Positions 16,757-37,284 of a DNA stretch of 64,000 bases are shown here, piece by piece (within the stretch, counting starts at the first letter, position 1; the number at the start of each line of letters is the position of its first letter). The position numbers and the translations under genes are program-made. Source of the DNA: an uncultured virus (IMG/VR IMGVR_UViG_3300014205_000210) (taxonomy: Duplodnaviria; Heunggongvirae; Uroviricota; Caudoviricetes); the IMG/VR virus record IMGVR_UViG_3300014205_000210, positions 1-64,000 of that record, one strand, 5' to 3'. A model generated the notes under the pieces. It searched no databases. It was not told where the DNA came from and saw nothing but the letters and a program-made list of their open reading frames with translations.

Positions 16757-19700
16757 TTATACCTTTTCTATATATTTTTTAAGTTCATCATTACGAGCTT
16801 GAATAGAGGCTAATTCTATTTTCCATTCATTTGGATGGTTTTTCCAATAAGCCCATGATTTTCCAAACCCCCATATTTCTCCTAATTTAGTATCTACAGT
16901 TAACTGAACTTTATTTTCTCCTTTATTTTTATAATATGGATAAGACATCCATCTTTCTGAAATTTCTATTGCCTCTTCAATTTCAGGTATATAGAATTCA
17001 CTAACTATTGAATCATGTACATTATTAAGTATACGAGACTTCATATTTTTTTTCTTAAATTCTTTTCTAATATTCCCCATTGCTAAAATTGTAGTTTGCC
17101 CAGAAGTTCCCTGAATCGGAGCATTTATACTTGCATTAACTTGGTTACTTAAAATAGATTTCATTTCACCAAGATATTTTTTCATGAACATATTACCAAA
17201 ATGTTCTTCTAACGTTTTACAAGTTCTATAAGTGAGTCTTGGAAGGCGTCGTTTTCTACCATACATTGTAGTCACATAGCCATGAGTTCCACAAAACTTT
17301 TTGTATTCATCCATATATTGTTTATATTCTGGGTAAGCATCATAAAAAGCTTCTAATAATTGCTCAGCTACTTTTGAATCTATTTTTAATTGTTGGCCTA
17401 ATCCGAAGCCAGTACTTCCATAAAAAGCAGAAAAATTAACTGTTTTTATTTCACCCCTAAAAGATTCAAGAAGTTTTTCTTCTTGGCCTTCAATTTTTGT
17501 TTTATTATATAATCCTTCATAGGTTAAATCGCAGTCATCAAAAAAAGTATAAAGATCAAATTTATCACCATAATGTTCATATAATTTTCTTTCACTCACA
17601 AAACGAGAACTCATCCAAGTAGCTATAGTAAATCTGTCTAGAACTTCTGCTACTTTGGCCCCAGTATAACAATGCATATCTTTATCATTAAGAATTAAAT
17701 CTTCAAGGGGGCCTTTTCCAGAAATTTGAGATCCAATTCTAATTTCCATAGCTTGATAATCTTGCTCAACTAATACAAAACCTTCAGATGGAAGAAAGAT
17801 TTTTCTAAAACTAGGAGTTTTTGGCATATTTTGAAAATTAACCGTAGCATTTAACCCACCACCACCAGACATTCTACCAGTTTTTGTTCCGTATAATTTA
17901 TACCCACCATAAAGACGCCCTTTATAAATAGAGGCTACAAATCCTTTTTTACTAATCTTTATTGCTTCATCTTCGATTTCATCAGCATCTTCAATATTTA
18001 GAAATTCAGGAGTTTCTTCATCTTCTTTTTCACTAGTACTATTATTTAACTTTATACCAAATTGAGAAAGTTCTTTTGTAAGATGATTATACACGATAAT
18101 TTTCTTAGCAAAATCAAGCCCAAAATCAGCATAACAATTCATTGCTTCTTTATTAACTTGAAAGGTTCCAGCTTTTGTTTTAAATTTTTGTTTTTCAGAT
18201 TCAGGTAACTTCCTAAATTTAGAAAGGTCATTTAAAAAGTTAGCAACTACTTCACCTAATTGCAAATTACTTTTTAAATTAAATTCTTTATTTGCTAAGG
18301 TATAAATTTCACTTTTAAGGCCTAAAGCTTGAATTTTTAATGACTCTGCATATTCATCTAATTCTTTTTTGTCAATTTGAGTTCCAGTCATTTCAATATC
18401 AGTAATCATTTCAACTGCAGGCATCATTCGTTGGTAAAAATCTTCTTTTACACAAGAATCTTCTAAATCTAATCTTCTCAAAAAATATGTATATAATTGA
18501 TACGTTATTATAGCATCATAACAAGCATATTTAACTAAAATATCTGTAGGCATTTGAGAAAAATCAGCGACTTTATGCTCTTTTAATTTATAGTCTTTAA
18601 CCCATTGTTTTTGCTCAGCTTCATACCCACCTTCAGTTGTATAAATCCAAGCCAAAGCTTTTAAACTATTTGGACTATTTTCATTTAAAACATGAGCTGC
18701 TAACATTGTATCAAAAGTACATTTGGCTTCACTAATTCCTTTTGCTCTAAGAAATTTTAAGTCAAATTGTGCATTTTGATAAATCCAAGTAATTGCTATA
18801 TTTGAGAAAAAAGAATTTAAAAGTGCTTTATCAATTTTATCAAAAGGCAAAAAATATCCAGTTATACCATCATAAGATAAAGAAATATTATGCAAAGTAT
18901 CTTCAAAATAATTAAATCCACTTGTTTCAGTGTCAATAGCAATTGCAGTAATAGATTTATTATTTATAAGCTCTTGTATAAATTTATTTGGGTCATCAAT
19001 ATAGGTAAATTTTAATTCTTGTTTTCTAATTGGTCTTTCATTTGTAGCTTTTATTGCTCTTATAAGCTGGTCTTTGGACCATTTCCATTCGTAATTATCA
19101 AATCCCTGAGTTTTATAAAGAGGGGCAATCGGAAATACTTTACAATTAAATTCTTTTGAATATAACCAGGAGTCATCAATCATCCAATCTTTTAAAGGAT
19201 TGTTTTCGCCAAGTTCAGATTTATTAATAGGAACAAAAAAATGCCCACCAACATTTTTTTGTTTAATAGCTTCAACAATTTTAAACATTGTATTTTCAGT
19301 AATAGAATATATTGCTCTACCAGTAGTAACAATAATTTTTGGAGCAATAATATCTATAATTTCTTTTACATTTTGTTTTTTACAAGAGACATAAGCCCCA
19401 GCAGCCTCATTAATTTTATAATCTTCACTTGCACAACCAACAGCATGAATAACACCATAAGTAAGTTTATGAACTCGAAATAAATTATCACAGTATTTAT
19501 AAAAAGGCTTTGTCTTTAAATCCTTTTCTGGATGTTCTAAAAGAAGTAAAACATCAATTTTAGTTTTAGAGCAATAATTATAAATTTCTTCTGTTCCAAT
19601 TAGTAACTTAACTAAATTAGCTTTTGAATTAAAAACTCTTAATTCACGAGCTCGACGCAAAGTATCTTGGCAGGCTTTCGCTCCTAAAGGGCACCAACAT

Positions 19701-19879
19701 AGCCCTTCTACATAATTTTCATGGGGTTGTTTTTTTGACTTTAATGGAGCTGGAAGTTTTTGTTGGTTGAAATTTAAAGGTTGAGAAAGTTGAGAAAGTT
19801 CTTGTACAGAACTTTTTTTAATTTTTAAAGAAGATTTTTTTACTTCTTCAGGTTTTTTTTGCTGAAATAATTGGGTCAT
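16757..19879 (-). CDS. polA: family A DNA polymerase with N-terminal UDG-like domain and 3'-5' exonuclease
   Basis: Exo DTETSG, NAQFD, YACYD; TGRMS; motif A DYQAMEIR, B RGEIKTVNFSAFYG, C VHDS. Confidence 0.93.
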   Translation of the reverse strand: MTQLFQQKKPEEVKKSSLKIKKSSVQELSQLSQPLNFNQQKLPAPLKSKKQPHENYVEGLCWCPLGAKACQDTLRRARELRVFNSKANLVKLLIGTEEIYNYCSKTKIDVLLLLEHPEKDLKTKPFYKYCDNLFRVHKLTYGVIHAVGCASEDYKINEAAGAYVSCKKQNVKEIIDIIAPKIIVTTGRAIYSITENTMFKIVEAIKQKNVGGHFFVPINKSELGENNPLKDWMIDDSWLYSKEFNCKVFPIAPLYKTQGFDNYEWKWSKDQLIRAIKATNERPIRKQELKFTYIDDPNKFIQELINNKSITAIAIDTETSGFNYFEDTLHNISLSYDGITGYFLPFDKIDKALLNSFFSNIAITWIYQNAQFDLKFLRAKGISEAKCTFDTMLAAHVLNENSPNSLKALAWIYTTEGGYEAEQKQWVKDYKLKEHKVADFSQMPTDILVKYACYDAIITYQLYTYFLRRLDLEDSCVKEDFYQRMMPAVEMITDIEMTGTQIDKKELDEYAESLKIQALGLKSEIYTLANKEFNLKSNLQLGEVVANFLNDLSKFRKLPESEKQKFKTKAGTFQVNKEAMNCYADFGLDFAKKIIVYNHLTKELSQFGIKLNNSTSEKEDEETPEFLNIEDADEIEDEAIKISKKGFVASIYKGRLYGGYKLYGTKTGRMSGGGGLNATVNFQNMPKTPSFRKIFLPSEGFVLVEQDYQAMEIRIGSQISGKGPLEDLILNDKDMHCYTGAKVAEVLDRFTIATWMSSRFVSERKLYEHYGDKFDLYTFFDDCDLTYEGLYNKTKIEGQEEKLLESFRGEIKTVNFSAFYGSTGFGLGQQLKIDSKVAEQLLEAFYDAYPEYKQYMDEYKKFCGTHGYVTTMYGRKRRLPRLTYRTCKTLEEHFGNMFMKKYLGEMKSILSNQVNASINAPIQGTSGQTTILAMGNIRKEFKKKNMKSRILNNVHDSIVSEFYIPEIEEAIEISERWMSYPYYKNKGENKVQLTVDTKLGEIWGFGKSWAYWKNHPNEWKIELASIQARNDELKKYIEKV

Positions 19880-19881
19880 AA

Positions 19882-20109
19882 TTATTCTATAATTAAATCA
19901 CCTTTTTTCAATTCAAGAGGAGTAAAATCACCTTTTAAAGCATTTGCAGTTTGAAAACTAAAAATAGTATCTTTTTCATGAAGCTTAATATTATTACCAG
20001 AGGTTAAAACAATATTATATAAATTACCCCAAAGATCCTTACCAATATTCTCAATTTTTAAAATTCTTGAGCATTTAAACTTAGTAGATTTTTCGGTAAA
20101 CATTGACAT
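19882..20109 (-). CDS. small protein with weak Hint/intein-like beta pattern
   Basis: LYNIVLTSGNNIKL..ELKKGDLI; AAGGA RBS and class I motif upstream. Confidence 0.5.
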   Translation of the reverse strand: MSMFTEKSTKFKCSRILKIENIGKDLWGNLYNIVLTSGNNIKLHEKDTIFSFQTANALKGDFTPLELKKGDLIIE

Positions 20110-20159: not shown

Positions 20160-20663
20160 TTATAAATTTTCAAAAACAGAATAATCTTCAACTACTAATT
20201 TACGAATTTTAACATCACATTCTTTAGCAAAAGTTAAACTTTCGGGGTCTGTTTTATCATAATCATATAAATAAACAATTTCCTTTATTCCGCTAATAAT
20301 CATTAATTTTAAACAATCTTGGCATGGAGATAAAGTTTGGTATACAATTGCTCCATCTAATGAAATACCCTCTTTAGAAGCTCCTCCGAGCAGAGATTGC
20401 TCACTATGAATTTCATATTTTAATGAAAAATTATGGTGGGCTTCTCTCCATTCCTCATGAGTAGCAAAATGGTCTGGGCAAAGAAGTATATTATCATCGC
20501 AGTTAATGAATCCGGGAGGTGTCCCATTAATTCCTGTATATAAAATATGACCCTTTTTAACAGCAACTGCTGCTACTTTAAAGCTCCTACAATGAGACTG
20601 TTTAGAAGCCAAAACAGCTATTTTCATAAACATTAAATCATACTGTTGTTTTTTTGTTTTCAT
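20160..20663 (-). CDS. dCMP deaminase
   Basis: SHC..KV, GINGTPPG, HSE, SPCQDC zinc-deaminase motifs; start likely MKTKK at 20663 (GGAG RBS). Confidence 0.92.
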   Translation of the reverse strand: MKTKKQQYDLMFMKIAVLASKQSHCRSFKVAAVAVKKGHILYTGINGTPPGFINCDDNILLCPDHFATHEEWREAHHNFSLKYEIHSEQSLLGGASKEGISLDGAIVYQTLSPCQDCLKLMIISGIKEIVYLYDYDKTDPESLTFAKECDVKIRKLVVEDYSVFENL

Positions 20664-21360
20664 ACCACTCCACCATATTATGTAATAGTTGAAAATGTTT
20701 TTCATAAATGTGAGCTGTATTAGCTATATAAATTAAAGAGTCTGGTTTTAAATTTGGGTAATATTTTACTAATTCACAAAAAAGTTTATTATATACATGG
20801 CAGTGCCAAAATAAGTCTGAAAAAAAGCCGTATATAAGATCCATAGATCTTTGATTAACAATATAAATTAGCTTATCATCTCGTATAAAATGACTTGTAG
20901 CAAAAGTACACATAAATTCCTGCATTCCATCTCTACAATAATCGTACTGCATCGAAGGTCTATTATAAATCATACAAGATCGACGTGACTCTTTATTTCG
21001 TTTTAATTCTTCTAAAGCATTAGAAAATTGATAATAATTCTCCTTTGAAAAAATACACCATCCATAATTCGAATTTATATTTCCATGTTTATCAGCAATC
21101 TTTTTCCATAGGCCAGCTATATTCCCAATAATGTCTACACTTAATGATTGAGATTCATACCACTTTATTTCTTCTTCACAATATTTAATTGGAGTTTTTC
21201 TAACTCCAAAATCAAGAATGGGTTGTGTAGGGTCTAGTTCAATTTTAAAACCTAAAATTTCAACAGTTTTGCTTCCACTTTTATCAATAACAAAGTCTTC
21301 AGCAAGAAGTTTATTATTTAAGGCTTTAAATATTGGATATAATCTGTTTTCATTTGTCAT
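20638..21360 (-). CDS. dCMP hydroxymethylase (T4 gp42-like, thymidylate synthase fold)
   Basis: Colinear with T4 gp42 as recalled: DFVIDKSG.KTVEI, EIKWY, INSNYGW, SRR..MIYNRPSMQYDY..DGM.EFMCT, RSMD..YGFFSD, HIYEKHF; Asp at the dCMP-specificity position; start likely 21360. Confidence 0.9.
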   Translation of the reverse strand: MTNENRLYPIFKALNNKLLAEDFVIDKSGSKTVEILGFKIELDPTQPILDFGVRKTPIKYCEEEIKWYESQSLSVDIIGNIAGLWKKIADKHGNINSNYGWCIFSKENYYQFSNALEELKRNKESRRSCMIYNRPSMQYDYCRDGMQEFMCTFATSHFIRDDKLIYIVNQRSMDLIYGFFSDLFWHCHVYNKLFCELVKYYPNLKPDSLIYIANTAHIYEKHFQLLHNMVEWYENKKTTV

Positions 21361-22552
21361 ATGAAAATAGCCCTTTAATGTCTTTAATAACATTATCAGA
21401 AATTGATTCAAATGAACTTTCTTTTTTCACAAATTTTTTCATTTTAATACTTGAATCACTCATATTATCTAAGGCCAAATTTAATTTTTCACATATACTT
21501 TCTGGGGCTATAGGAATATCACAATAATATTCATATTTTGATCCACCCCTTTTTGCATATTCAAAAACTTTTGGCATTATAATAGTATTTTCACAATAAA
21601 TAGATTCAAGATTTGCACACCCACCATATCTCTCTATATTATATAAATGAACACTAACCTCAGCTTTCCATAGCAATTCAAAATATTCTTGCCTATTTAA
21701 TGGGTGGTCTTTATAAATTAAAACATTTTTTACATTTTCTTTTAACCATTCAGAAGAATATTTTCCAGATGGGTTTGTAAATATAACTTGAAAATCATTT
21801 CGCTTTTCTGCTAAAAGATTTATTGCTTGTATAAACTCTTCGTGATGAGTATAATTTATTCCTGATAATCTATTTAAGAATAAAATCGTTGGTTTATCAA
21901 ATTTCTCATCAGTTTTATATTTATCAGCTTCTTTAGTAGAAAAACCAAAATCCCATATGGTAGATTTATTTTTTATAGCACTAGTATATTTACCATTAAA
22001 TTTCTTTCTTGCATTTTGAATAAAAGCTTTTTTTGTAGATTTACAAGTAAAAACAGCTAAATCACTGCATTCAAATCCATCGAACTGACGCCAATCATAA
22101 GAAATATTTTTGTCTATTTTTTCTTCCCCTATTTCAGGGGCATCTAGCCAATAGCAACAGGAAATTAATTTTGTTTCTTTGCTCTTATACCATAAATAAG
22201 TTTTAATATTTCTTGAAAGTTCTGTTATATTATTCCAAACTACATCAATTTTTGGTAATGGCTTAAACATTGAGTCAAAATCACCAATATTAAAATGTTG
22301 GCGATTGAAAAAAGCATCCACAATAAAATTATAAGGTACCCAATGAATTCGTTCATTAGAGTCTAAAAGTTCATCATAAGATTTTATATCAGCAAAATCG
22401 TTTAATGGGGCAATTAATATATAAAAATGCCAATCAGTTTTTTCAAGAAGCTCTCTTAAAATTCCGCCCATCATATTAATATTACTATCAGAAGAAATCC
22501 ATTTTCCTTCATTATTATAAATTGACTGCTGCAAAATATATAATATATTCAT
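21350..22552 (-). CDS. GT-B fold glycosyltransferase, probable DNA/nucleotide-modifying
   Basis: 400 aa; MNILYI N-terminal strand, PTILFLNR, RQEYFELL..AEVSV..ERYGG.ANLESI GT-B C-domain signature; overlaps the hydroxymethylase start. Confidence 0.8.
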   Translation of the reverse strand: MNILYILQQSIYNNEGKWISSDSNINMMGGILRELLEKTDWHFYILIAPLNDFADIKSYDELLDSNERIHWVPYNFIVDAFFNRQHFNIGDFDSMFKPLPKIDVVWNNITELSRNIKTYLWYKSKETKLISCCYWLDAPEIGEEKIDKNISYDWRQFDGFECSDLAVFTCKSTKKAFIQNARKKFNGKYTSAIKNKSTIWDFGFSTKEADKYKTDEKFDKPTILFLNRLSGINYTHHEEFIQAINLLAEKRNDFQVIFTNPSGKYSSEWLKENVKNVLIYKDHPLNRQEYFELLWKAEVSVHLYNIERYGGCANLESIYCENTIIMPKVFEYAKRGGSKYEYYCDIPIAPESICEKLNLALDNMSDSSIKMKKFVKKESSFESISDNVIKDIKGLFSYDK

Positions 22553-23049
22553 TAAATAAACTCCAAAATAGTTGTAATTTGATTCTCTAAATTTTCATCT
22601 GTAGTATCTAAAAATAAAACTGGGTTTACTGACTCTTTAAAAAATTTTTGGTAAGCTTTTTGTACATTTTTAATATCTTTTTTTTGTAAATATTCATCAA
22701 TATAATTTTTATATTCAGTTTTATAGCAATAAATATAATGTAAATTTACTTCTCTAAATTTTTTATCTTGCATAAAAATAAAATCTAAGTCAGTAATTCT
22801 TCCAAGTCCTTGAGAATAAGCAAACTCACAGCAGTCTCCGCGATCTCGTATAACAGAATACCTTGTTTGCTTCAAGAAATTAAAAAAGAAAGAAGATTCA
22901 TAATGTAAGGCTTCATAATAATCTCTATTAAAATTGTGCTCCATAGGGTTTTTGAAATATGGTATTTCTAACCGTTGACTAAGTTCAGTTGCTATTGTAG
23001 TTTTTCCACTCTTATCTACTCCGCCAAATACTATGGTAATTTGTCTCAT
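22552..23049 (-). CDS. thymidylate-kinase-like nucleotide kinase
   Basis: GGVDKSGKTT P-loop, IRDR motif, LDTT. Confidence 0.8.
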   Translation of the reverse strand: MRQITIVFGGVDKSGKTTIATELSQRLEIPYFKNPMEHNFNRDYYEALHYESSFFFNFLKQTRYSVIRDRGDCCEFAYSQGLGRITDLDFIFMQDKKFREVNLHYIYCYKTEYKNYIDEYLQKKDIKNVQKAYQKFFKESVNPVLFLDTTDENLENQITTILEFI

Positions 23050-23606
23050 TTTATAGCTTCTCGCAATTTTTTGGCTTGTTCATTATAGGCATCAACTCCA
23101 ACATTATATGAGAAAGCTGCTGGGTGATAAAAAGTTTTGTACGGAATTTTTATATCACTACTTTTTATGAAAGCATTTGCTTCAGCCCCAAAACTTAATA
23201 TAACTTTAGGCTTTATTATATCTAATTGAATATTTAGAAAATTTCTGCAATTTATAATTTCTTCTTTATTTAATTTTGAATTACTAGGTGAAGAGCATTT
23301 ACAAATATTAACAAAAAACATCCTATTCATTATAAAGTCTTTTCCAAAAATATTTTCAACATATTTTCCTACATTACAAATTAACCAATTCTTTTTATAT
23401 GTTTCTAAAAATTCTTGACTTTGAACTTCAGTATATGAATGTTCTAAGCCAGGATTTCTCATTAGCATAAAAATATCAAGTTTTTCTGGATCTCCATAGT
23501 AAATATGTGGGTATGGAATTGGAGTAACTTCCCTTAATCTAGTACATACATTGCAATTTAATATAGCCTTTTCGAGTCTTTGTAATTGTAATAATTTTGA
23601 AGACAT
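23046..23606 (-). CDS. uracil-DNA glycosylase superfamily protein (family 4-like, Fe-S), divergent motif A
   Basis: CNVC, NICKC, EIINC, IKPKVILSFG, YHPA; motif A reads MRNPG instead of GE[A/G]PG. Confidence 0.8.
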   Translation of the reverse strand: MSSKLLQLQRLEKAILNCNVCTRLREVTPIPYPHIYYGDPEKLDIFMLMRNPGLEHSYTEVQSQEFLETYKKNWLICNVGKYVENIFGKDFIMNRMFFVNICKCSSPSNSKLNKEEIINCRNFLNIQLDIIKPKVILSFGAEANAFIKSSDIKIPYKTFYHPAAFSYNVGVDAYNEQAKKLREAIK

Positions 23607-24634
23607 TATACTTTTCCCAGTTTAATCATCTCTCTAACCCAAGGAATTACTTCATCACGCAATATATTTTCTAAAAGTGTTTTAGACTCAAAGTTTAATA
23701 TTTCTTTAGCTTTAATAGTGTCAGGAATTCTACACTGTACATCATACTTAAAAGGCTTGTCTGAAATATAAGAAAATTCCTTTTCAGGCTGAATTAAATT
23801 CCAAATTATTTTGGCTAATTCTAGTACAGTAAGCCCTCTATTAGTACTTAAATTAAAATCCTCGTTCAAAGCTTTTTCAGAAAAAATCGCTTTTTCTATT
23901 CCATCAGCAAGATCATTAGCTGGAGTATAGTATCGTATTTGATTTCCATCACCTAAAATCCTAAGCGGGTTTTGCCCCTTAATTATTTTTTGAATAAAAT
24001 CAACTACTACATGGCTCATTGCTAATTCTATAGTGCCACTCATTACTTTCTCATCTACTTTGGCTTTTTGTTCTCCCAAACCCACAGCATTAAAGGGGCG
24101 TATAATAGTGTAAGGCAAACCATATTGCTCATAATACCCTTGACAAAAATACTCAACAGATAATTTTTGAAACCCATATGTAGAAAGAGGAGGAGAAATT
24201 TTTCTTTCATCTCCTTCTTTTGAAGGAAATTTAGTGGCAGATTCATAAACCATGCTAGAAGATATTGCTAGTATTTTTTTTAAGAAGCCTTTTTTATAAG
24301 CATAAATTGCTGTTTTAAAAAAAGTAGAACAAATTTCTTCATTTTCTGAAATTAAGTCTCCAGCTAACTTATGAAAAAAACTTATACCACCGATCAAAGC
24401 GGCTCCATTAACCATAATTTCAGGCTTATAAAACCATACAAGAAATTTCATAAGAAATTTATTTTTAGCATCCATATAAAAATGATGATAATTTTTATGG
24501 GTATGATAACTTTTTTTTATTTTCCCATATTTCCAATTATTATCAATTCCAATTACTATATGGCCTTTATCAAGGAGATTTTGAATAGCATATCCAGCAA
24601 TAAAACCTTTATCACCTGTCCAAAATATTCTCAT
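23606..24634 (-). CDS. NAD-dependent nucleotide-sugar epimerase/dehydratase/decarboxylase (extended SDR)
   Basis: TGDKGFIAG, ISSSMVY, YGFQK (YxxxK), RPFN, GDGNQIR. Confidence 0.9.
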   Translation of the reverse strand: MRIFWTGDKGFIAGYAIQNLLDKGHIVIGIDNNWKYGKIKKSYHTHKNYHHFYMDAKNKFLMKFLVWFYKPEIMVNGAALIGGISFFHKLAGDLISENEEICSTFFKTAIYAYKKGFLKKILAISSSMVYESATKFPSKEGDERKISPPLSTYGFQKLSVEYFCQGYYEQYGLPYTIIRPFNAVGLGEQKAKVDEKVMSGTIELAMSHVVVDFIQKIIKGQNPLRILGDGNQIRYYTPANDLADGIEKAIFSEKALNEDFNLSTNRGLTVLELAKIIWNLIQPEKEFSYISDKPFKYDVQCRIPDTIKAKEILNFESKTLLENILRDEVIPWVREMIKLGKV

Positions 24635-24641
24635 AATACCT

Positions 24642-25877
24642 CTAAAAATAATTTAAAAGTTTTTTATTAAGTATTCCCCAACCATCAATTACTATTTTAT
24701 TTTTTAATATAGATAAATCAATGGTATAATATGATTTATGATTTATTGCAATAATAAGTATATCACTATTTTTAATAACTTCTTGTAGTTCTTTATTATA
24801 AAATTTATAATTATTATAAAAATCATCTACAGGGCCATGAGGCAAATTCGGCTCATTAATATATATTTCATTTGGAATATATCGATTTATATACCTTATT
24901 AATTTTGGGGTTAAATTATCTCGAGTATCATCAGTATCAGCCTTAAAAGTATACCCAAGAATTCCAATATTTTTATTTTTAATTTTATCTTTAAGAAGGT
25001 CAACATAAAATTTTGGCCCAAATTCATTAACTTTATAAGAACTCATTAGTAAATCTGATTGTGAAAAATTTTCATTTATCATCCCCCAATCTTTTACCAA
25101 ACAAGTTCCCTTGCTAAATCCAGGTTTTAATAGTCCTTTATTTCGTGGATAATCTTTATTCATTATTTTTAATAATGTATATATATCAACTCCAAAAGAA
25201 TCTGCAATATAAGAAAAATAATTTGGAATTGACATATTTATATATCTAAAAATATTTGTAAATAATTTAGCTAATTCAGCTTCTTCAGGAGTACATTGGA
25301 TAATGTCAACTCCAAAAACTGAAAATATATTTTTTGCTCGTAAATACGAAGCCTCATCATAGGTTCCAATAATTTGAGGAAGTGTACTTAATTCTTCATA
25401 AGCCTTTCCTTCAGCTAATCGTTCAGGGCACATAGCCAAATAAAAATCTTTTCCACAAACCATTTTTGTTTTATTTTCAATATACTCTTTAATAAATTTT
25501 GTGGTGTTAGGAGCTACTGTAGATCTAAGAACTATGAGAATATCTTTTAATATGGCTTTCTGAACTAAATTATCAATCACTCCTTTTACTTGAGATAAAT
25601 CAGTCTCAATATGCTGCATTAATGGGGTTCCAACAGTAATAATAAAAGCCTTACTTTCTGGATACCATAAAAGAAGAGAAGCATCTAATATTTGTATTTT
25701 TGACTTTTCAAGAAGTTTATCATACCCGGGTTCTAAAAAAGGCATTTTTTTATTATTAACAGAATTAATTAGGTCTCTATTTAAATCAATAGCCTCAACC
25801 GCTAAACCTTTTTCTTCTAATGATAAAGCTAAAGGAAGGCCCACTCTACCACATCCAATAATAGTTACATCAAACAT
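24642..25877 (-). CDS. UDP-N-acetylhexosamine-type nucleotide-sugar 6-dehydrogenase (WecC/WbpA-like)
   Basis: IGCGRVGLP, VGTP, RSTV, CPERLAEG, KLFTNIFR, GTCLVKD, GYTFKADTDDTR. Confidence 0.9.
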   Translation of the reverse strand: MFDVTIIGCGRVGLPLALSLEEKGLAVEAIDLNRDLINSVNNKKMPFLEPGYDKLLEKSKIQILDASLLLWYPESKAFIITVGTPLMQHIETDLSQVKGVIDNLVQKAILKDILIVLRSTVAPNTTKFIKEYIENKTKMVCGKDFYLAMCPERLAEGKAYEELSTLPQIIGTYDEASYLRAKNIFSVFGVDIIQCTPEEAELAKLFTNIFRYINMSIPNYFSYIADSFGVDIYTLLKIMNKDYPRNKGLLKPGFSKGTCLVKDWGMINENFSQSDLLMSSYKVNEFGPKFYVDLLKDKIKNKNIGILGYTFKADTDDTRDNLTPKLIRYINRYIPNEIYINEPNLPHGPVDDFYNNYKFYNKELQEVIKNSDILIIAINHKSYYTIDLSILKNKIVIDGWGILNKKLLNYF

Positions 25878-25885
25878 AATCTCTC

Positions 25886-26401
25886 CTATTTATTATCAGT
25901 AGACCCAAATCCGCCATCTTTTCGTTCTGAATTTTTATGAAGTTCTAAAATTTGAGTATACTCAACTTCTTCAGGTATAGCATATGAGACTGGAATTAAA
26001 ATTGCTTGAATAATTTTTTCATTTTCTTCAAGAGCAACATTTGTATTCCCAGTGTTTACAATAGAAATATGAATTTGCCCAGAATAATCTTCATCGATAA
26101 TTTCTGCAAGTCTATCAAGCCCTTTTTTAGTTGCAATTCCAGATTTATTATGCACAGCTAACATATATCCAGGGCTAAATTTTATATGAATTCCTGAAGG
26201 AATTAAAATTCGCTGCTGAGGTTGTAATGAAATATACTTATATTCATTTTTATTATCAACAATAAAATTATGTCCTGAGTTTTTTTCTGCTAATTGTTTT
26301 ACAAACTCTTCAGAAAACTCAGGAATATAAAAATCTATTCCAGCAGACCTTGATGTTCCTCTTGATGGAGATTTAACTTTTAGGGTTTTAGCAAACTTCA
26401 T
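25886..26401 (-). CDS. dut: trimeric dUTPase
   Basis: SAGIDF, KSG, IDEDYSG, IIQ, RKDGGFGST. Confidence 0.92.
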   Translation of the reverse strand: MKFAKTLKVKSPSRGTSRSAGIDFYIPEFSEEFVKQLAEKNSGHNFIVDNKNEYKYISLQPQQRILIPSGIHIKFSPGYMLAVHNKSGIATKKGLDRLAEIIDEDYSGQIHISIVNTGNTNVALEENEKIIQAILIPVSYAIPEEVEYTQILELHKNSERKDGGFGSTDNK

Positions 26402-26643
26402 TATTGCTTATCCTTTTGCTCAGAATTACCTTTAAAAAGTATACCAAATACCCACGTCAAACAAACTGATTGCCACCAACTAAGATTTGACGCTAAAGTT
26501 CCATTTTTTACTAATTCTGGAAAAGCTGCAGGTATAGCAACTGGCCAAATAAAATAAAGAATACTTCCACTAATAAGAGCAATCAAGCCCACTCCGCCAA
26601 ATATAAGTACTGCTGCCCCGATTACTTTTGTAAATTTTTCCAT
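26401..26643 (-). CDS. small membrane protein
   Basis: Two hydrophobic segments, ..LSWWQSV..GILFK; class I motif at 26674-26683 upstream. Confidence 0.65.
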   Translation of the reverse strand: MEKFTKVIGAAVLIFGGVGLIALISGSILYFIWPVAIPAAFPELVKNGTLASNLSWWQSVCLTWVFGILFKGNSEQKDKQ

Positions 26644-26712
26644 TTTCTTTTTTCCTTGTGTTTAATTATATAATATATACAAAAATGTCTATTAACTTAA
26701 CCATAAAAAATT

Positions 26713-28900: not shown

Positions 28901-29419
28901 TTAATTTTTAAAATAATATATCCCATTGCTACTTAATTTTCTATAATTATAATCATATAACTCTTGATTGCTACTTGCAAATTGTATATATCCATCATTT
29001 TTTATAGAGTGTTGTTGTAAACTCTTTTCAAACTTTCCACATTTTATAAATTGAAAACCTATAATTTTATTTTCTTTAACATACTCAATTTTATACCCAG
29101 TATAAATACAAATATCAAAAGAGTTTCCAAATTGTTTAAGAAAGCTTTTTGTAAACTCTAAATTTCTAGGAGCTAAACTATCACCACCAGAAAATACTAC
29201 AGCTTTCGTATCATATTCTTGAGTTTTAATAATAAGAATATTATACAAAGTTTGTCCATCCATATAGGGGTTTTTTTCATATTCTTGAAGAGTAGAATTT
29301 TGGCACTCTACGCAATTATGCTCACAACCTTTAAAATTAACAAGAATTGCAATACTTGACGGATCTGGATAGTCAATTAAAGTAAAAATTATTGGATAGT
29401 GAATACTAACTTGGCTCAT
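28901..29419 (-). CDS. nrdG: class III RNR activase (radical SAM)
   Basis: GCEHNCVECQN, FSGGD, YTGY; near nrdD. Confidence 0.9.
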   Translation of the reverse strand: MSQVSIHYPIIFTLIDYPDPSSIAILVNFKGCEHNCVECQNSTLQEYEKNPYMDGQTLYNILIIKTQEYDTKAVVFSGGDSLAPRNLEFTKSFLKQFGNSFDICIYTGYKIEYVKENKIIGFQFIKCGKFEKSLQQHSIKNDGYIQFASSNQELYDYNYRKLSSNGIYYFKN

Positions 29420-30000
29420 TGAAGGTAGGCATACAAAGCATCAAATTGGTTTTTAAGGTCTTGTATTGAGCCACTGTTATTAATAACAAAGTCAAAATAT
29501 GAATCTGAAACTAAGTCAAGATCAATTTCAGAAATATCAGAATCTACTTCTTTCGAGTCTCTAACTATTCGTATAGTATAAACGTCTCTATCAGAAAATC
29601 GCTTTATTAATTCTGATAGTTCATATAAAAAACGACAATCAGTAACTACTATATTTGAATTAGAAAGACAAGAATTTTCTTTTATTTCATTCTCTAAAAG
29701 ATTTACCCAGTAATATTGCCCCATAAGTATTTTTATACTTTGACCGAACCATTGCATCAACGATCGTATAGTAATTGGTTGGTGAGTAGTAGTATTAATT
29801 CCAAGTTCTCTAGACTTATTTGAATAAAAATCTTCTATAGAAATTTCAAAACTAGCAATGTTCTTAGAAAATATATATAATTGTTCTTTTAAAGAATCAG
29901 CCAACGCCATTTTATAAAAATTTTTTTCTTTAAAAAACTCAGCAAAAGTGTCTTTACCTGAATATTTTTTACCAGAAATAAGTACTAATTTTTTTCTCAT
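29416..30000 (-). CDS. deoxynucleoside monophosphate kinase (T4 gp1-like)
   Basis: SGKKYSGKDT, LADSLK, RSLMQWFG, TDCRF..E. Confidence 0.88.
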   Translation of the reverse strand: MRKKLVLISGKKYSGKDTFAEFFKEKNFYKMALADSLKEQLYIFSKNIASFEISIEDFYSNKSRELGINTTTHQPITIRSLMQWFGQSIKILMGQYYWVNLLENEIKENSCLSNSNIVVTDCRFLYELSELIKRFSDRDVYTIRIVRDSKEVDSDISEIDLDLVSDSYFDFVINNSGSIQDLKNQFDALYAYLQ

Positions 30001-31007: not shown

Positions 31008-32084
31008 TTACCCATAATATTCATTTTCCAATAAATATTTATTATTTATACATTTAAAAGAAATAATTTGCCCATTAATTAACTTGGTTGATTTAAAAAC
31101 TATCCCTTCGCGCTCTACCCCAAAAGCCCCTTTGCCTTCTACATATTTAAGAAATTCATCTATAGTTTTCATTTCTTGAAATGGATATGATACTCTAATA
31201 TAGGGAACATGTAATATATTATATTGTTCAAGCCAAATATGAAAAATAAAATTTCTATTATCTCTTGTATAATAATGCTGAGTATCAATATTATAAACAT
31301 CAAATAAATAAAACTCTATTTTAGAAAGTTTTAAAGGATTACCTTGTATTCCTGGACCTACTAATTCTCCTTGAAGAGCAATATTTTCTCCAAACTCTCT
31401 TAAACATTTTTCTATGCATAAGTCATTACCAATTTTTACATAAAGATTTTCATCATTGCCTTGAAGTTTATATTCCATGTTTCTACTACAAACTCCATAT
31501 TCTCCATCTTTAAGATAAAAACTTACAGAGCTACCATCAATTTTTTCTGTTTCTTCAAATTCAACATTTCTATATCCAAAAAATTCTGGAAGATTTTGTA
31601 AACGCTCTTGGTCCGTCTTTTTAAGAAAAGAAGGCATGAATCCTTTTACTAAACCTTGAAGTTGAACTGGAATAGGGGCTTCATATTTTTTGATTCCGAG
31701 GTTATTTGTTAAATCTGTGTTAATGAAAAAATCTTTATGTTCTTCAATTACCTTAAGATCTATTTCAGGTAAAGCATTAATAAATTCATGAAGAGGTAAT
31801 AATAGCCCCTGACTTAAAACGCCGCGTAACTTCATTGTACGAAGTCTATATCCTATACTACCATCAGCAGAAGTTTTTCTACCACGAGACTCTAAAAATA
31901 AAAATGGCTCATGACAAGGAAGCAAAGAGTCAACTTCAAAATAAACAGCTAACTCACCTACTTTAAAATCACCTTTTTGTACAACACATTGCCATCCAGG
32001 TATTTTGCATAATTCAATTTTGTCTGCTTTTTCAATTGGAAGAATCTCTTGTACTTGTCGAATAGTAGCTAATTTTCGTTCCAT
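31008..32084 (-). CDS. RNA ligase, DRB0094/Rnl5-type with N-terminal OB domain
   Basis: RKLATI..ADKIE..GWQCVV, LRGVLSQG, KTDQERLQN, EKIDGSS, QGELVG, EGIVFK, FKCINN. Confidence 0.9.
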   Translation of the reverse strand: MERKLATIRQVQEILPIEKADKIELCKIPGWQCVVQKGDFKVGELAVYFEVDSLLPCHEPFLFLESRGRKTSADGSIGYRLRTMKLRGVLSQGLLLPLHEFINALPEIDLKVIEEHKDFFINTDLTNNLGIKKYEAPIPVQLQGLVKGFMPSFLKKTDQERLQNLPEFFGYRNVEFEETEKIDGSSVSFYLKDGEYGVCSRNMEYKLQGNDENLYVKIGNDLCIEKCLREFGENIALQGELVGPGIQGNPLKLSKIEFYLFDVYNIDTQHYYTRDNRNFIFHIWLEQYNILHVPYIRVSYPFQEMKTIDEFLKYVEGKGAFGVEREGIVFKSTKLINGQIISFKCINNKYLLENEYYG

Positions 32085-32607: not shown

Positions 32608-33579
32608 TTATGCTAAATGGATTTTCCCTTGACGTAGTTGAGCCAACATAAGAGGCTTTAACTCTACAGCTGAAGCGTTTTTATGACCTCCACCTCCATG
32701 AATTTGAGCTATTTTTGATACATCAAACTCTCCTCGACTACGAAGGCTTACTTTACTATTTGTTCTATCCCAAGTAGAATATCCAATTAAATATTTTACA
32801 GAATCTCCAAGATGATCTAATAGCCGTGACATTACAATACTTATCTTTGACCCAATTTCAACAAAAGCATATGAAGTTTCACAATTATCTATACGAAGAG
32901 ATAAATTATCTTTTGCTTTTTTATAGGAGGCCTCTTCTTTTATTCGAGCACTTTCAGCTGCTTTTCTTTCAAGAGCTGTAAAAAAGAATTGGCAATTTCT
33001 CATTATCTTTGTAAATTGAGCATTTACAAATTTTTGGTGTTTTTCAGTATCAGATTGAGTTTTACATATATTCCAATTAATATATAATGAGCTAAATAAT
33101 ACATAATGCAAACTTTTTGCTTCTTCCCAAAAAGGAGAAGTTAATTGCCAGGTATCATATGTATTTGCTAGATTAACTAATCCAGCTAAAGTGCGATTTG
33201 GTCGAATACCCTCTGATAGCTCTTCAAAAAGAATTTTTGCCCCACAACGAGTATCATCATAATAATAATTTTCTCTTTCTCCTAAAAGTTCTCGAGAAGT
33301 AGCATGATGGTCAAATATATAAACAATTTTTTGTAATTCAATAGTAAGTTTTTCATATAATTCAAGGGTCGGAGCAATATCAACAAATATTACTATCTCA
33401 GCAGCTTCAGCATCTTTCATAGTAAATTCAGACATTTCTCTATCTGCAGTATTAAGAAGAACAAAGGTTTTTGCTAAAGGAATTAAATAATATTCAGCTA
33501 CTATTCTAGAGGTTACACCATCTAGATCTGAATCAACTACACAATAAATCTTTTTATCTTTAAAAATAGAAATATCCAT
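32608..33579 (-). CDS. DHH/DHHA1 phosphoesterase (oligoribonuclease/RecJ-like)
   Basis: DSDLDG, VD, FDHH, CGA, SLRS, GGGGHKNAS. Confidence 0.9.
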   Translation of the reverse strand: MDISIFKDKKIYCVVDSDLDGVTSRIVAEYYLIPLAKTFVLLNTADREMSEFTMKDAEAAEIVIFVDIAPTLELYEKLTIELQKIVYIFDHHATSRELLGERENYYYDDTRCGAKILFEELSEGIRPNRTLAGLVNLANTYDTWQLTSPFWEEAKSLHYVLFSSLYINWNICKTQSDTEKHQKFVNAQFTKIMRNCQFFFTALERKAAESARIKEEASYKKAKDNLSLRIDNCETSYAFVEIGSKISIVMSRLLDHLGDSVKYLIGYSTWDRTNSKVSLRSRGEFDVSKIAQIHGGGGHKNASAVELKPLMLAQLRQGKIHLA

Positions 33580-34028: not shown

Positions 34029-35234
34029 TTATCTTACATATTCGTTCCACTGGCTTTGTAGTCGTTTCATTAAAATCTCATCATATAATTCTTTAGGACA
34101 AAATCCTTCTTTATCTTCAAAAATATGCTCAAAACATTGTATAATTTTTTGTACACTAAATCGCTCTAAAATTATATCTCTATTTCCCTGAGCTTTAATA
34201 TAATAGGCTTCTTTGTCTTCTTTCCATAATTTATATAATGAAGCTAATCCTACAATAGAATCTCTGATTAGAGGTACTCCATAATATGAACCGTATTCAT
34301 AATTATGATGATACATACTATGAGCTTCATCTAATACGTATTTAACAGAATAATTTACAGGAGACTTAGCAACTTCAGCAGATGAAGACCAGTTTGTATA
34401 AACTACTGGAATTCCACATAGCATTGATTCTACAGCAGGTAAACCAAAACCTTCACCACGACTTAAAAATAGTAATACTGAAACTGATTTATATAAAGTC
34501 ACCATTTCTTCAGAAGTTAATTCTTTATTTATAGTGTATATTGAAGTATTTTTACATTCCATATTAGTTTGAGCACAGCATTTTATTAAGTCTTCTACAG
34601 AAAATTCTATATCTGAAAGTAAGTGGTATTTCATTACTAAACGAGAGTCTTTTGTAACCCCTAAAGCTCGTGAATAAGCTATGATTGAGTCCTCTACTCC
34701 TTTACGTTTCGTATTTTGCCCTACAAAAAGCACAGTAAATTTCTCTTCTTGTTTCTTAATTTCTAAATCAGTAAGAGTATATTTAGAAAAATCAACATAA
34801 ATTGGAAAATAATAAACTTTCTTTTTTGTTAAATTTAAAAGTTGATTTCCAATAAAATATGAAGAGGCTACAAACCCATCAAAAAAAGTAGAGTCATCAA
34901 ATAAGAAAGACCAAGCTCTTGGAAGTGGTAAAGTTTCCCATAATATATTTAAAAATTTTCTTTTACAATTTCTCATTAAATGATATAATAATTCTTTATC
35001 AATAGGGTTTAACAATGAGAATGGATTAACAACTAAAAACCCGATATCAAATTCATCAGCATTATCTAGATTTTCTTTAGAAATTTGTTCTAAAGTATTT
35101 ACTATTGTTAATTTAGAAATTGTCTTTTGAGACATCATCATTGAAAATATTGTAACAAAACTTGCTGAGGCATTTCCATACCCAGCATCTTTTGATGAAA
35201 ATCCTTGAGTAGGTGCAATTAATAAAACCCGCAT
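34029..35234 (-). CDS. GT4-family glycosyltransferase
   Basis: GYG, WET, FVGQNTKRKG, SRGEGFGLPAVESMLCGIPVV. Confidence 0.9.
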   Translation of the reverse strand: MRVLLIAPTQGFSSKDAGYGNASASFVTIFSMMMSQKTISKLTIVNTLEQISKENLDNADEFDIGFLVVNPFSLLNPIDKELLYHLMRNCKRKFLNILWETLPLPRAWSFLFDDSTFFDGFVASSYFIGNQLLNLTKKKVYYFPIYVDFSKYTLTDLEIKKQEEKFTVLFVGQNTKRKGVEDSIIAYSRALGVTKDSRLVMKYHLLSDIEFSVEDLIKCCAQTNMECKNTSIYTINKELTSEEMVTLYKSVSVLLFLSRGEGFGLPAVESMLCGIPVVYTNWSSSAEVAKSPVNYSVKYVLDEAHSMYHHNYEYGSYYGVPLIRDSIVGLASLYKLWKEDKEAYYIKAQGNRDIILERFSVQKIIQCFEHIFEDKEGFCPKELYDEILMKRLQSQWNEYVR

Positions 35235-35265
35235 TATTTATCTCCAAATTTTTTAAATTCTATTA

Positions 35266-36561: not shown

Positions 36562-36582
36562 AGTACAACTCCTAATTTTTCC

Positions 36583-37284
36583 TTAATTATTAGTATTTGG
36601 AACAGCTTCCTCTATTTGTAATCCTGTATTAAAATCTTTTTCCGATTTACCAGTTCCCTTATTAAATCTGTAATGTTTAGAATTGACATAACCATCTCTC
36701 TCTAATGTTTTCCATTTTAAACAAGGGCCACAATAACCACAATTATCTTCATCACCTTCACAAAAAGTTATTTCACTTATAATATCAAAAGGTAATTCTG
36801 CTAATTCTTCAGATTTTTTAGTCTTTAATAAAGGAAAAGTTAATTTTGGATAATTATGCATAAAAGGAATATAAGCATCATATAAATTATAAATATCATT
36901 TACATAAGAAACAGCATCATCGTTCATTACATAACAAATAGCAATTTTTGTAGCAGTAGAGTAATTAAATATAATTCCAGTTAACCAAACTAATATTTGG
37001 CATAAATAAAGCCCATTTCGTGTGCTTTTAATATCTACAGAAATTCCTTTCCCTAAATACTCAAAGTTTGGAAATATTTGAAATAAAGGCAATATTCTTT
37101 CTATAGCTTTTAATTCTCTTTTAGTTTTTGTATAATTATTCATTATTTCAAAATAACTAGCTTTTATTATAAAACCTGCATTTAAAGCTTTCCAAATAAA
37201 ATAAGTTGAGTCTAATCCACCTGACCAAGCTACAAAAATAATATCATCTTTTGAATAAATTTCAGAAAAGTTTAAAATACTCAT
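36583..37284 (-). CDS. QueC-like PP-loop ATPase
   Basis: AWSGGLDST PP-loop, FPL..K, C-x6-CGYCGPC zinc site. Confidence 0.8.
   Translation of the reverse strand: MSILNFSEIYSKDDIIFVAWSGGLDSTYFIWKALNAGFIIKASYFEIMNNYTKTKRELKAIERILPLFQIFPNFEYLGKGISVDIKSTRNGLYLCQILVWLTGIIFNYSTATKIAICYVMNDDAVSYVNDIYNLYDAYIPFMHNYPKLTFPLLKTKKSEELAELPFDIISEITFCEGDEDNCGYCGPCLKWKTLERDGYVNSKHYRFNKGTGKSEKDFNTGLQIEEAVPNTNN

Follow-up and report, generated by a model that had tools for sequence, protein, structure and literature searches.

A predicted phage operon that may couple a T4-type dCMP hydroxymethylase to a phage-made sugar donor for cytosine hypermodification

The gene string at positions 20160-26401 of an uncultured Caudoviricetes virus (IMG/VR record IMGVR_UViG_3300014205_000210) probably encodes the nucleotide and sugar half of a T4-style cytosine replacement, in which 5-hydroxymethylcytosine (hmC) would be coated using a sugar donor made by the phage itself. 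The window referred to throughout is the whole stretch of DNA that was analysed, comprising positions 1 to 64,000 of a viral record of 76,161 bp; the record is linear according to IMG/VR, and CheckV estimates its completeness at approximately 46%. In the proposed scheme, dCMP would be hydroxymethylated, phosphorylated to 5-hydroxymethyl-dCTP and incorporated by the phage polymerase, and after replication a GT4-like glycosyltransferase would move a sugar onto the hydroxymethyl group, for which an alpha linkage is expected because GT4 enzymes are retaining as a family. The donor would arise through a nucleotide-sugar dehydrogenase oxidising C6 of a host UDP-hexose or UDP-N-acetylhexosamine (UDP-HexNAc) to give a uronic acid, which a short-chain dehydrogenase/reductase (SDR) would remodel; epimerisation at C4 is the most likely reaction, oxidative decarboxylation a less likely one. 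A deaminase and a dUTPase-fold enzyme would deliver dUMP to a thymidylate synthase of the host or one encoded elsewhere, and a uracil-DNA glycosylase (UDG)-like iron-sulphur (Fe-S) protein may strip uracil or 5-hydroxymethyluracil (hmU) from the modified DNA. The likely purpose would be the shielding of phage DNA from restriction enzymes and CRISPR nucleases.

The predicted base precursor, 5-hydroxymethyl-dCMP, is well supported. The gene at 20638-21411 (minus strand) encodes a protein of the thymidylate synthase (TS) fold (PF00303, E = 1.5e-17, 64.1 bits) that matches T4 gp42 (PDB 1b49) with 182.4 bits in a phmmer comparison (E = 9e-53), against 34.8 bits (E = 9.7e-8) for the best thymidylate synthase and 39.7 bits for gp48 of RB69, a 5-hydroxy-dCMP synthase. 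The residues that the initial annotation, made from the sequence alone, had likened to those of gp42 do correspond: the Cys of FMCT and the Asp of GFFSD align with Cys148 and Asp179 of the T4 enzyme, which reads GFRND at the latter site. Furthermore, the protein has Glu three positions before the Cys (position 143 in E. coli ThyA numbering), Asp at position 169 (RSMD) and Asp at position 177, all of which are of the hydroxymethylase type. When nine TS homologues linked to related cassettes were aligned, Asp169 (RS.D) and Asp177 were found in every one, with position 143 being Asp in eight and Asn in the ninth. The similarity scores and the diagnostic residues thus agree with the earlier identification of a gp42-type dCMP hydroxymethylase.

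These residues also bear on a different chemistry. The TS homologues of RB69, DLP3 and RL38J1 make 5-hydroxy-dCMP (5hodCMP) rather than 5-hydroxymethyl-dCMP, and the marker proposed for such synthases is Asn in place of the Asp169 of E. coli ThyA (D169N), with Asp at N177 denoting the use of dCMP and an acidic residue at L143, through water access, a non-methyl product (Lee et al., NAR 2026, PMC13326640). That the window enzyme is a flavin-dependent 5-hydroxy-dCMP synthase of this sort, with the sugar ether-linked directly to C5, would be suggested by the adjacency of a kinase, a first GT-B transferase and a TS homologue, as in RB69, DLP3 and RL38J1, the kinases being homologous. Yet this seems very remote, as D169N, which appears as RSQN in RB69 gp48, is absent both from the window protein and from all nine linked homologues, the score to T4 gp42 exceeds that to gp48 as given above, and neither an arabinose-5-phosphate isomerase, a HAD phosphatase nor a sugar nucleotidyltransferase was seen among the window open reading frames (ORFs) that were scanned.

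Two of five related records carry a separate ThyA (406 bits) or ThyX (148.9 bits), so that dTMP synthesis in these phages is evidently not the task of the cassette enzyme. One relative with a 100% complete genome has the cassette TS homologue and no second thymidylate synthase; therefore some of these phages must rely on the host for dTMP.

The association of the hydroxymethylase with the sugar genes was studied by scanning IMG/VR with an alignment of the transferase, which yielded 12 loci, and by locating the neighbours within 10 kb of the transferase through tblastn with the window proteins. One locus is cut at the transferase, and the loci L004 and L005, like L014 and L015, seem to be near-duplicates of each other, so that the independent sample is approximately ten. 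The transferases of these loci share only 32 to 65% identity. Nevertheless, within this distance the TS homologue was found in 10 of the 12, the thymidylate kinase (TMK)-like kinase and the SDR in nine each, the deaminase in eight, and the dehydrogenase, the UDG-like gene and the dUTPase in seven each. The usual order is that of the window, i.e. dehydrogenase, SDR, sometimes the UDG-like gene, kinase, transferase, TS homologue and deaminase. The chief reason for thinking that the hydroxymethylase, the sugar genes and the transferase act together is that this linkage persists although the sequences have diverged strongly, and the survey of the same gene neighbourhood supports the tie between glycosyltransferase and hydroxymethylase that had been proposed.

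The same distribution is informative about the alternative that hmC is indeed made, with the dehydrogenase, SDR and GT4-like enzyme serving some other glycan, such as one on a virion protein or on the host envelope or capsule, and being linked to the base-modifying genes by co-regulation only. Cellular relatives of the SDR occur in modules of an envelope type, containing GT2 transferases, methyltransferases and large unannotated proteins; the acceptor of the transferase is a prediction; and the glycosylation of virions by phage glycosyltransferases is known (PMC12619734). Against this, the transferase adjoins the hydroxymethylase, or lies within a few genes of it, wherever the two are linked in the survey and despite its divergence, the string is embedded among replication and nucleotide genes rather than structural genes, and the phage dehydrogenase-SDR pair is accompanied by no GT2 or polyprenyl-type gene. 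This alternative consequently appears unlikely.

The transferase itself is a 400-aa protein (21350-22552, minus strand) for which no match could be found in Pfam (at E 0.01), PHROG, NCBIfam or the sequences of the PDB. At least 112 homologues are present in a metagenome protein collection, six of these 112 having a precomputed PF00534 or PF13692 assignment. An AlphaFold2 (AF2) model built from an alignment of 38 sequences has a mean predicted local distance difference test (pLDDT) score of 94.6 and a predicted template modelling (pTM) score of 0.93. The folds ranked highest by Foldseek are those of retaining GT4 enzymes, namely GlgM (6tvp, 1.9e-13), MshA (3c4q, 2.2e-13, TM score 0.68), sucrose-phosphate synthase (SPS, 6kih), PglA and BshA, with E-values around 1e-13, and in the viral structure library BFVD the model lands among annotated phage glycosyltransferases. 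A reading of the protein as an epimerase was rejected, the UDP-GlcNAc 2-epimerase fold appearing only at rank 41 of the Foldseek results. In view of the absence of a Pfam match and the small fraction of homologues with recognised glycosyltransferase domains, the protein is called GT4-like by fold and not as a profile member. The C-terminal acidic motif through which GT4 enzymes bind their donor is E-x7-E; G311 and E316 do not vary in the alignment of 38 sequences and E307 hardly does, the two Glu being eight residues apart, not seven. The protein can, on the evidence of its modelled fold, be assigned with high confidence to a separate and new sequence family of GT-B/GT4-like glycosyltransferases, and its synteny with the hydroxymethylase suggests that it glycosylates hmC in DNA.

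The dehydrogenase (24642-25877, minus strand) matches all three domains of the UDPG_MGDP_dh family above their cut-offs (PF03721, PF00984 and PF03720), as well as TIGR03026 (267.2 bits, cut-off 189.8), and its GTCLVKD Cys falls at the site of the Cys in both WecC and Ugd of E. coli. The initial annotation had used CPER and KL..N..R as signs of a WecC-type rather than a Ugd-type enzyme; in the alignment made here this distinction holds, both motifs being found in the window enzyme and E. coli WecC, whereas E. coli Ugd reads SPEFL and lacks the Arg. Among solved structures the closest are the UDP-N-acetylmannosamine (UDP-ManNAc) dehydrogenases of P. horikoshii (4r16, 146 bits) and S. aureus (Cap5O, 136 bits), with UDP-glucose dehydrogenases reaching at most 92 bits. 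All equivalog cut-offs are missed by a wide margin: the archaeal UDP-ManNAc dehydrogenase model gives 178.8 bits where 750 are required and the WecC model 152.8 where 459 are required, and the scores for AglM (135.1), TuaD (115.9) and TviB (52.6) are also below the respective thresholds. A maximum likelihood tree was built from 31 sequences chosen from the fetched loci, all of which were kept in the final tree. In it the phage enzymes make up a single clade (support 99/100) nested with one cellular group. This clade and both cellular groups are united in a larger one (97/88), which leaves WecC of E. coli and a TviB-like enzyme outside, and E. coli Ugd is far from the phage sequences. The dehydrogenase therefore appears to belong to the WecC-like half of the family, nearer to WecC than to Ugd, a placement that does not fix its substrate.

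The genomic contexts of the cellular relatives of this enzyme, which are 39-50% identical to it, were drawn from 80 loci in species-representative genomes. An extended SDR is the next gene downstream in 17 of the 18 loci that were scanned, five of these having a second, Fcl-like SDR in addition, but these partners are only 22-27% identical to the phage SDR. A WecB 2-epimerase lies beside the dehydrogenase relative in a single scanned locus, and the contexts are otherwise mixed. The phage type of SDR was not found at E 1e-20 in five genomes carrying dehydrogenase relatives. Attempts to name the sugar from the dehydrogenase through NCBIfam, the PDB, the tree and the contexts of the 80 cellular loci gave no specific substrate.

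The second enzyme of the putative donor module is an extended SDR of the NAD-dependent epimerase/dehydratase family (23606-24634, minus strand; PF01370, E = 4.1e-28, 98.8 bits), in which the segments TGDKGFIAG, SSS and YGFQK, corresponding to the N-terminal Rossmann glycine motif and to the Ser/Thr and YxxxK of the catalytic set, are conserved across the family alignment. Its closest solved relatives are 4zrm, a UDP-hexose 4-epimerase from Thermotoga (90 bits), and 8vr2, a Psychrobacter protein titled oxidoreductase/decarboxylase that carries TSE (74.5 bits). The Glu of the TSE motif is needed by decarboxylases of the UXS and ArnA type. The SSSMVY(E) of the phage protein aligns with STSEVY of human UXS1, such that Met occupies the position of this Glu, and the Met is invariant in 12 members of the family. 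The replacement favours an epimerase: the SDR is most likely a 4-epimerase, and the decarboxylation branch, which would lead to a pentosamine, is weakened.

This SDR belongs to a very large cellular family whose members are 52-60% identical to it. In 64 of 80 metagenome loci containing such members a dehydrogenase is encoded directly upstream, several of the other 16 having no upstream flank, and these dehydrogenases are 27-38% identical to the phage enzyme. An ArnC/DPM1-like GT2, i.e. a polyprenyl-phosphate transferase, lies within two genes in 11 of 12 annotated loci, which often also hold a methyltransferase and large unannotated proteins. The arrangement of a WecC-like dehydrogenase, an SDR, a small GT2 and often a methyltransferase is a very common cellular module, exemplified by metagenome locus L097 (4820-8392), and looks like a lipid-carrier sugar pathway of the Arn/Rgt type. 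The cluster names of six cellular SDR relatives are generic only. The recurrence of the pairing, first a dehydrogenase and then this type of SDR, implies that the two enzymes act as one donor-making module, and the succession would represent a recurrent two-step donor pathway in cells.

The expectation that dehydrogenase and SDR form a donor-making pair is thereby upheld, by their synteny with the transferase in related phages as well as by the pairing in cellular contigs. The earlier proposal of an acidic or pentosamine sugar fared less evenly: a donor module of the phage's own is found, but the identity of the sugar does not follow, given the missed equivalog cut-offs and a split between epimerase and decarboxylase among the nearest neighbours of the SDR. 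Searches for a named product from the side of the SDR, using PDB matches, the 80 metagenome loci, AF2 and Foldseek, led no further than these two neighbours. No function is attached to either cellular module in the libraries searched; judged from the residues discussed above, an epimerised uronic acid is the most likely candidate and a decarboxylated pentose or pentosamine a possible one.

Two predicted kinases could act on the modified nucleotide. The first, a 165-aa P-loop protein (22552-23049, minus strand), scores below the thresholds of the relevant Pfam families (TMK, 16.6 bits, cut-off 27; dNK, 20.5 bits, cut-off 27). Thymidylate kinases are recognised by a DR motif and an Asp-containing P-loop (GxDxxGKT), and in nine aligned sequences D69-R70 of the former and G10, D12 and K16 of the latter are invariant. 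The protein is related to gp45 of RB69 (hhalign probability 95.1%, E = 3.4e-8), the gene for which adjoins those for the first transferase and the TS homologue of that phage (RB69 4048-6214), and by locus numbering a kinase has the same position in DLP3 and RL38J1 (PMC13326640, Table 1). A TMK-like kinase is shared by four groups of phages whose cytosine chemistries are of two kinds, 5-hydroxy and 5-hydroxymethyl. The second candidate, 6 kb upstream, is a deoxynucleoside monophosphate (dNMP) kinase resembling T4 gp1 (29416-30000, minus strand; PF21448, E = 1.5e-20, 74.2 bits, cut-off 27.1), which may be the 5-hydroxymethyl-dCMP kinase.

The presence of both kinases raises the question of the order of events, as the sugar could be put on 5-hydroxymethyl-dCMP before replication, with the TMK-like kinase phosphorylating the glycosylated nucleotide and the family A polymerase of the phage incorporating the product. 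This is distinctly improbable. In T4, the sugar is added on DNA. The same is described for the published glycosylated pyrimidine systems, as far as the accessible texts go. The point in favour of modification before replication is that a dedicated TMK-like kinase has been kept beside the transferase and the TS homologue in nine of the 12 loci and that its homologue occupies the same place in RB69, even though a gp1-type dNMP kinase is present too. In addition, a gp1 homologue suffices for 5hodCMP, and the accessible text of the same study gives the TMK-like kinase no experimental role (Lee et al., PMC13326640). Glycosylation after replication is retained in what follows.

The gene at 23046-23606 (minus strand) encodes a protein of the UDG superfamily that resembles family 4 (PF03167, 34.7 bits, cut-off 24.3; NF040953, E = 7.8e-13) and matches PDB 4zbx at 1.3e-9 over the central motif. 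It lies well under the family-4 cut-offs, with 42.9 bits for TIGR00758 (cut-off 125.3) and 48.3 bits for NF040953 (cut-off 250). Across seven sequences C18, C21, N51-P52-G53, K103-C104 and N119-C120 are invariant, the central FxNIxKC block is conserved and an HP motif is found where the sequences extend far enough; C18, C21, C104 and C120 are presumably the ligands of an Fe-S cluster. Motif A of family 4 is GE(A/G)PG. Here it reads RNPG with an invariant Asn, which we take to be the state of MUG and TDG rather than that of family 4. The protein is accordingly best described as a predicted UDG-superfamily member and not as a curated member of family 4, and its residues suggest an active glycosylase of altered specificity, acting for instance on uracil or hmU opposite G.

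The nucleotide pool would be shaped by two further products of the string. One is a trimeric dUTPase-fold deoxynucleoside triphosphate pyrophosphatase (25886-26401, minus strand; PF00692, E = 1.4e-16; phrog_135, 9.9e-29; TIGR00576, 92.8 bits), which may supply dUMP and possibly also dCMP, and the other a dCMP deaminase (20160-20705, minus strand; PF00383, E = 5.4e-19; phrog_174, 9.3e-44).

Several observations count against the proposed scheme. All of its chemical steps are predictions from comparisons of sequence and structure. No dCTPase of the MazG or dUTPase_2 type was found in the record, and no MazG dCTPase matched at cut-off in five relatives, one of them with a 100% complete genome. 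The scheme therefore lacks an obvious means of excluding dCTP: cytosine may be replaced only in part, unless dCTP is among the substrates of the dUTPase-fold enzyme. With regard to the transferase, a tblastn search of 50,697 phage records returned nothing, and kinship with RB69 gp47, RB69 gp46 and the transferase of the Maribacter phage Colly was rejected on hhalign probabilities of 3.7%, 0.3% and 0.1%, leaving synteny as the basis for a DNA acceptor. The AF2 model of the SDR has a pLDDT of 75, falling below 50 in the loop around the catalytic Ser and Tyr, and the phage donor pair looks chimeric, with dehydrogenase and SDR derived from different cellular lineages. Finally, in the stretches covered, neither a dehydrogenase nor an SDR accompanies the transferase, the TS homologue and the UDG-like gene in two near-duplicate loci of the survey, and in two loci the SDR is present but a dehydrogenase is not.

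The near-duplicate loci are what would be expected if the transferase used UDP-glucose or another common sugar nucleotide of the host to glycosylate hmC, with the dehydrogenase and SDR either dispensable or providing a further sugar for other transferases. Such transferases could be represented by two GT4 glycosyltransferases encoded outside the string, at 34029-35234 and 35266-36561 (minus strand; PF00534, E = 7e-13 and 1e-11; phrog_2170), and there is a precedent in the glycosyltransferase of contig 91 of Pyle et al., which gave hexuronic acid (HexA)-5hmC without its epimerase (bioRxiv 10.1101/2023.12.21.572611). However, the SDR and dehydrogenase are linked to the transferase in the majority of loci, almost always directly upstream of the kinase and transferase, and a homologue of the first of the two extra GT4 enzymes was found in just one of five related records. 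A host donor for the first sugar hence also seems improbable, and a donor produced by the phage pair remains the preferred explanation.

Given the single relative with such a homologue, the two extra GT4 genes do not belong to the conserved cassette; they may extend the sugar chain in this lineage. They are followed by genes for a QueC-like PP-loop ATPase (36583-37284) and an SNF2 helicase, the whole stretch (34029-39119) being on the minus strand. The QueC-like protein has an SGGxDS motif and a C-terminal Cys cluster, CxxCxxC; no homologue was detected in the five relatives, and the PDB yields only a PP-loop match with an E-value of 0.32. Membership of a 7-deazaguanine system was rejected, as neither TGT nor DpdA is present in three records, including this one. 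One may speculate that this enzyme carries out a second modification step confined to the lineage, such as the amidation of a carboxylate.

The layout of the string agrees in most respects with what had been described. All eight minus-strand genes are present as ORFs where they had been placed, with family assignments that stand, and at each junction the genes share 1-4 nt or are separated by 7-8 nt. The exceptions are the TS homologue and the deaminase, whose listed starts, TTG and ATG, lie 62 and 68 nt inside the preceding gene; the use of internal ATGs reduces these overlaps, the probable start of the TS homologue being that near 21360, and the TS homologues of related phages begin at the corresponding MTNE. 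At the head of the string is an ORF for a hydrophobic 80-aa protein (26401-26643, minus strand) with no Pfam or PHROG match, which is a candidate member only, preceded by an AT-rich gap of 69 nt. The single promoter that had been claimed there, with a motif at 26674-26683, finds no support in either a sigma-70 consensus scan, which returned 81 sites where 85.4 are expected, or a search with the surrounding 15-mer, for which 33 matches with up to three mismatches compare with an expectation of 27. The 10-mer core of the putative promoter occurs 37 times against 21 expected, a level reached by one of 100 shuffles, and most of the matches are intragenic. The further statement that the DNA polymerase follows directly is nearly correct, in that a 75-aa ORF (19882-20109) intervenes between it and the deaminase.

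This polymerase (16757-19879, minus strand) is of family A (PolA) and has an N-terminal extension of approximately 290 residues ahead of its exonuclease domain, without a Pfam match. The idea that the extension contains a UDG-like domain was discarded, a BLASTP comparison with the UDG-like protein of the cassette having revealed no similarity. PHROG and Pfam scans indicate a large contractile-tailed phage (baseplate wedge, tail sheath and tail tube) with T4-like replication and recombination genes, comprising a UvsX-like recombinase, an SbcCD-like nuclease, a clamp loader, a primase, a DnaB-like helicase, an RNA ligase and a polynucleotide kinase, together with the anaerobic ribonucleotide reductase NrdD and its activase. 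No tRNA genes were found, nor any Rfam match at gathering score. A blastn search with the 6.2-kb region retrieved seven records, each covering no more than 5% of it, so that no close sequenced phage was identified.

Other features of the record lie apart from the cassette. A T4-like RNA repair set on the minus strand (7276-8187, 31008-32084 and 32608-33579) includes the polynucleotide kinase (phrog_505, 1.2e-83) and the RNA ligase (phrog_968, 6.7e-87), with a DHH/DHHA1 phosphoesterase close by. Past the window, a Nudix hydrolase encoded among the tail genes (record positions 71425-71889, minus strand; phrog_1185, 1.6e-31) could bear on nucleotide-pool control. The GC content is approximately 28% across the window and 41.7% in the first 2 kb; here, at positions 1-2200, there is a run of small minus-strand ORFs without family matches, which may be acquired DNA.

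The T4 system consists of gp42, gp1, gp56, Cd and the alpha- and beta-glucosyltransferases, and draws on UDP-glucose of the host as donor. The phage described here shares with it a gp42-type hydroxymethylase, a gp1-like dNMP kinase, a dCMP deaminase and, beside the hydroxymethylase gene, a transferase of the GT-B fold, and also, if the scheme is right, the logic of making hmC before replication and transferring the sugar thereafter. By contrast, its transferase is of another sequence family, GT4-like rather than a match to the T4-type fold, it has its own donor synthesis through the dehydrogenase and SDR, it encodes in addition a UDG-like protein and a TMK-like kinase, a search for a dCTPase of the MazG type found none, and its polymerase is of family A where that of T4 is of family B.

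The glycosyl-5-hydroxycytosine phages RB69, DLP3 and RL38J1 resemble it in the triad mentioned above, in a phage-encoded donor synthesis with further GT4 enzymes (PMC13326640) and, for RB69 and DLP3, in first transferases that match the folds 3c4q and 6kih (PMC13326640, Table 1), as does the one here. They differ in that the retention of Asp169 here predicts a hydroxymethylase and not a hydroxylase, and in that their donor genes encode, in the text available, an isomerase, a kinase, a phosphatase and a uridylyltransferase in place of a dehydrogenase and an SDR. In RB69 the gene order in the direction of transcription is TS homologue, transferase, kinase, the reverse of that seen here, and its transferases have no sequence relation to the one in the window.

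Metagenomic phage clusters have yielded HexA-, HexNAc-, Kdo- and heptose-5hmC (Pyle et al., Cell Rep 2024; bioRxiv 10.1101/2023.12.21.572611). By their description, these clusters of a methyltransferase and a TET enzyme (5mYOX) with glycosyltransferases are similar in placing hexuronic acid (433 atomic mass units, amu) or HexNAc (460 amu) on 5hmC, and in transferases whose activity depends on a neighbouring SDR-type epimerase for the donor. In those systems, by contrast, 5hmC is made on DNA by a methyltransferase and a dioxygenase instead of by a TS homologue, and no sugar dehydrogenase is reported in the preprint text covered, where 'dehydrogenase' occurs only in 'haloacid dehydrogenase'.

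The Bacillus phage SP-15 has a UDP-glucose dehydrogenase in its cluster for the hypermodification of DNA with 5-(4',5'-dihydroxypentyl)uracil (DHPU)-glucuronolactone (Kropinski et al. 2018, PMC5977210), and thus provides an instance both of a phage UDP-sugar 6-dehydrogenase in a hypermodification cluster and of a uronic acid chemically shown on DNA. This dehydrogenase is a distant tblastn match of that in the window (23.6% identity). The system is distinguished, as the paper describes it, by the replacement of thymine, starting from hmU, by a phosphodiester-linked uronate and by other gene content.

A cultured example is offered by the flavobacterial Maribacter phages Colly_1 and Molly (Molycolviridae), in which a dehydrogenase, an SDR, an annotated 'beta glucosyl transferase' and a TS homologue are contiguous (gp098-gp101; NC_062752.1 69830-74589 in Colly_1). 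The Colly dehydrogenase, SDR and TS homologue are 31%, 25.5% and 23% identical, respectively, to the window proteins, but by profile comparison its transferase is unrelated. The TS homologue (359 aa) keeps the Cys, an Asp three residues before it and Asp169; position 177 is ambiguous in the alignment and possibly Asn, which would mean that hydroxymethyl-dUMP, and so hmU, is the product. The paper describing Colly and Molly (PMC8776804) does not discuss this gene string, and its main text contains none of six terms relating to modification.

The suggestion that the base would be new cannot be maintained in its general form, because hexuronate- and HexNAc-5hmC, as well as a phage UDP-glucose dehydrogenase for DNA modification, are already published in the two studies just cited on metagenomic clusters and SP-15. 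A search of the open-access literature for an hmC system based on a TS homologue and having its own sugar dehydrogenase gave only these two. A wider proposition can be formulated, namely that large uncultured phages of this kind are widespread and carry a negatively charged sugar on hmC, a uronic acid new to DNA such as an N-acetylhexosaminuronic acid or its C4 epimer. Its donor module would have been built from two cellular modules, one of which feeds polyprenyl-phosphate transfer, with the extra GT4 enzymes extending the sugar, the QueC-like enzyme perhaps amidating it and the UDG-like protein, with its MUG-like Asn, policing the base. This proposition is doubtful when taken as a whole.

Some consequences would follow from the less ambitious scheme. 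The new GT-B family, with a probable DNA acceptor, and the TMK-like kinase common to this cassette and the RB69-type clusters are by-products of the analysis, and the phage enzyme pair could help in identifying the product of the common cellular dehydrogenase-SDR-GT2 module. If the scheme is true, these phages would possess a pre-replicative route, through a TS homologue, to acidic or other non-glucose sugars on hmC, and, within the open-access literature searched, theirs would be the first hmC system described as providing its own dehydrogenation at C6. A charged sugar on every cytosine would alter the recognition of the DNA by restriction enzymes, type IV enzymes and CRISPR nucleases, and would also affect the sequencing of such phages.

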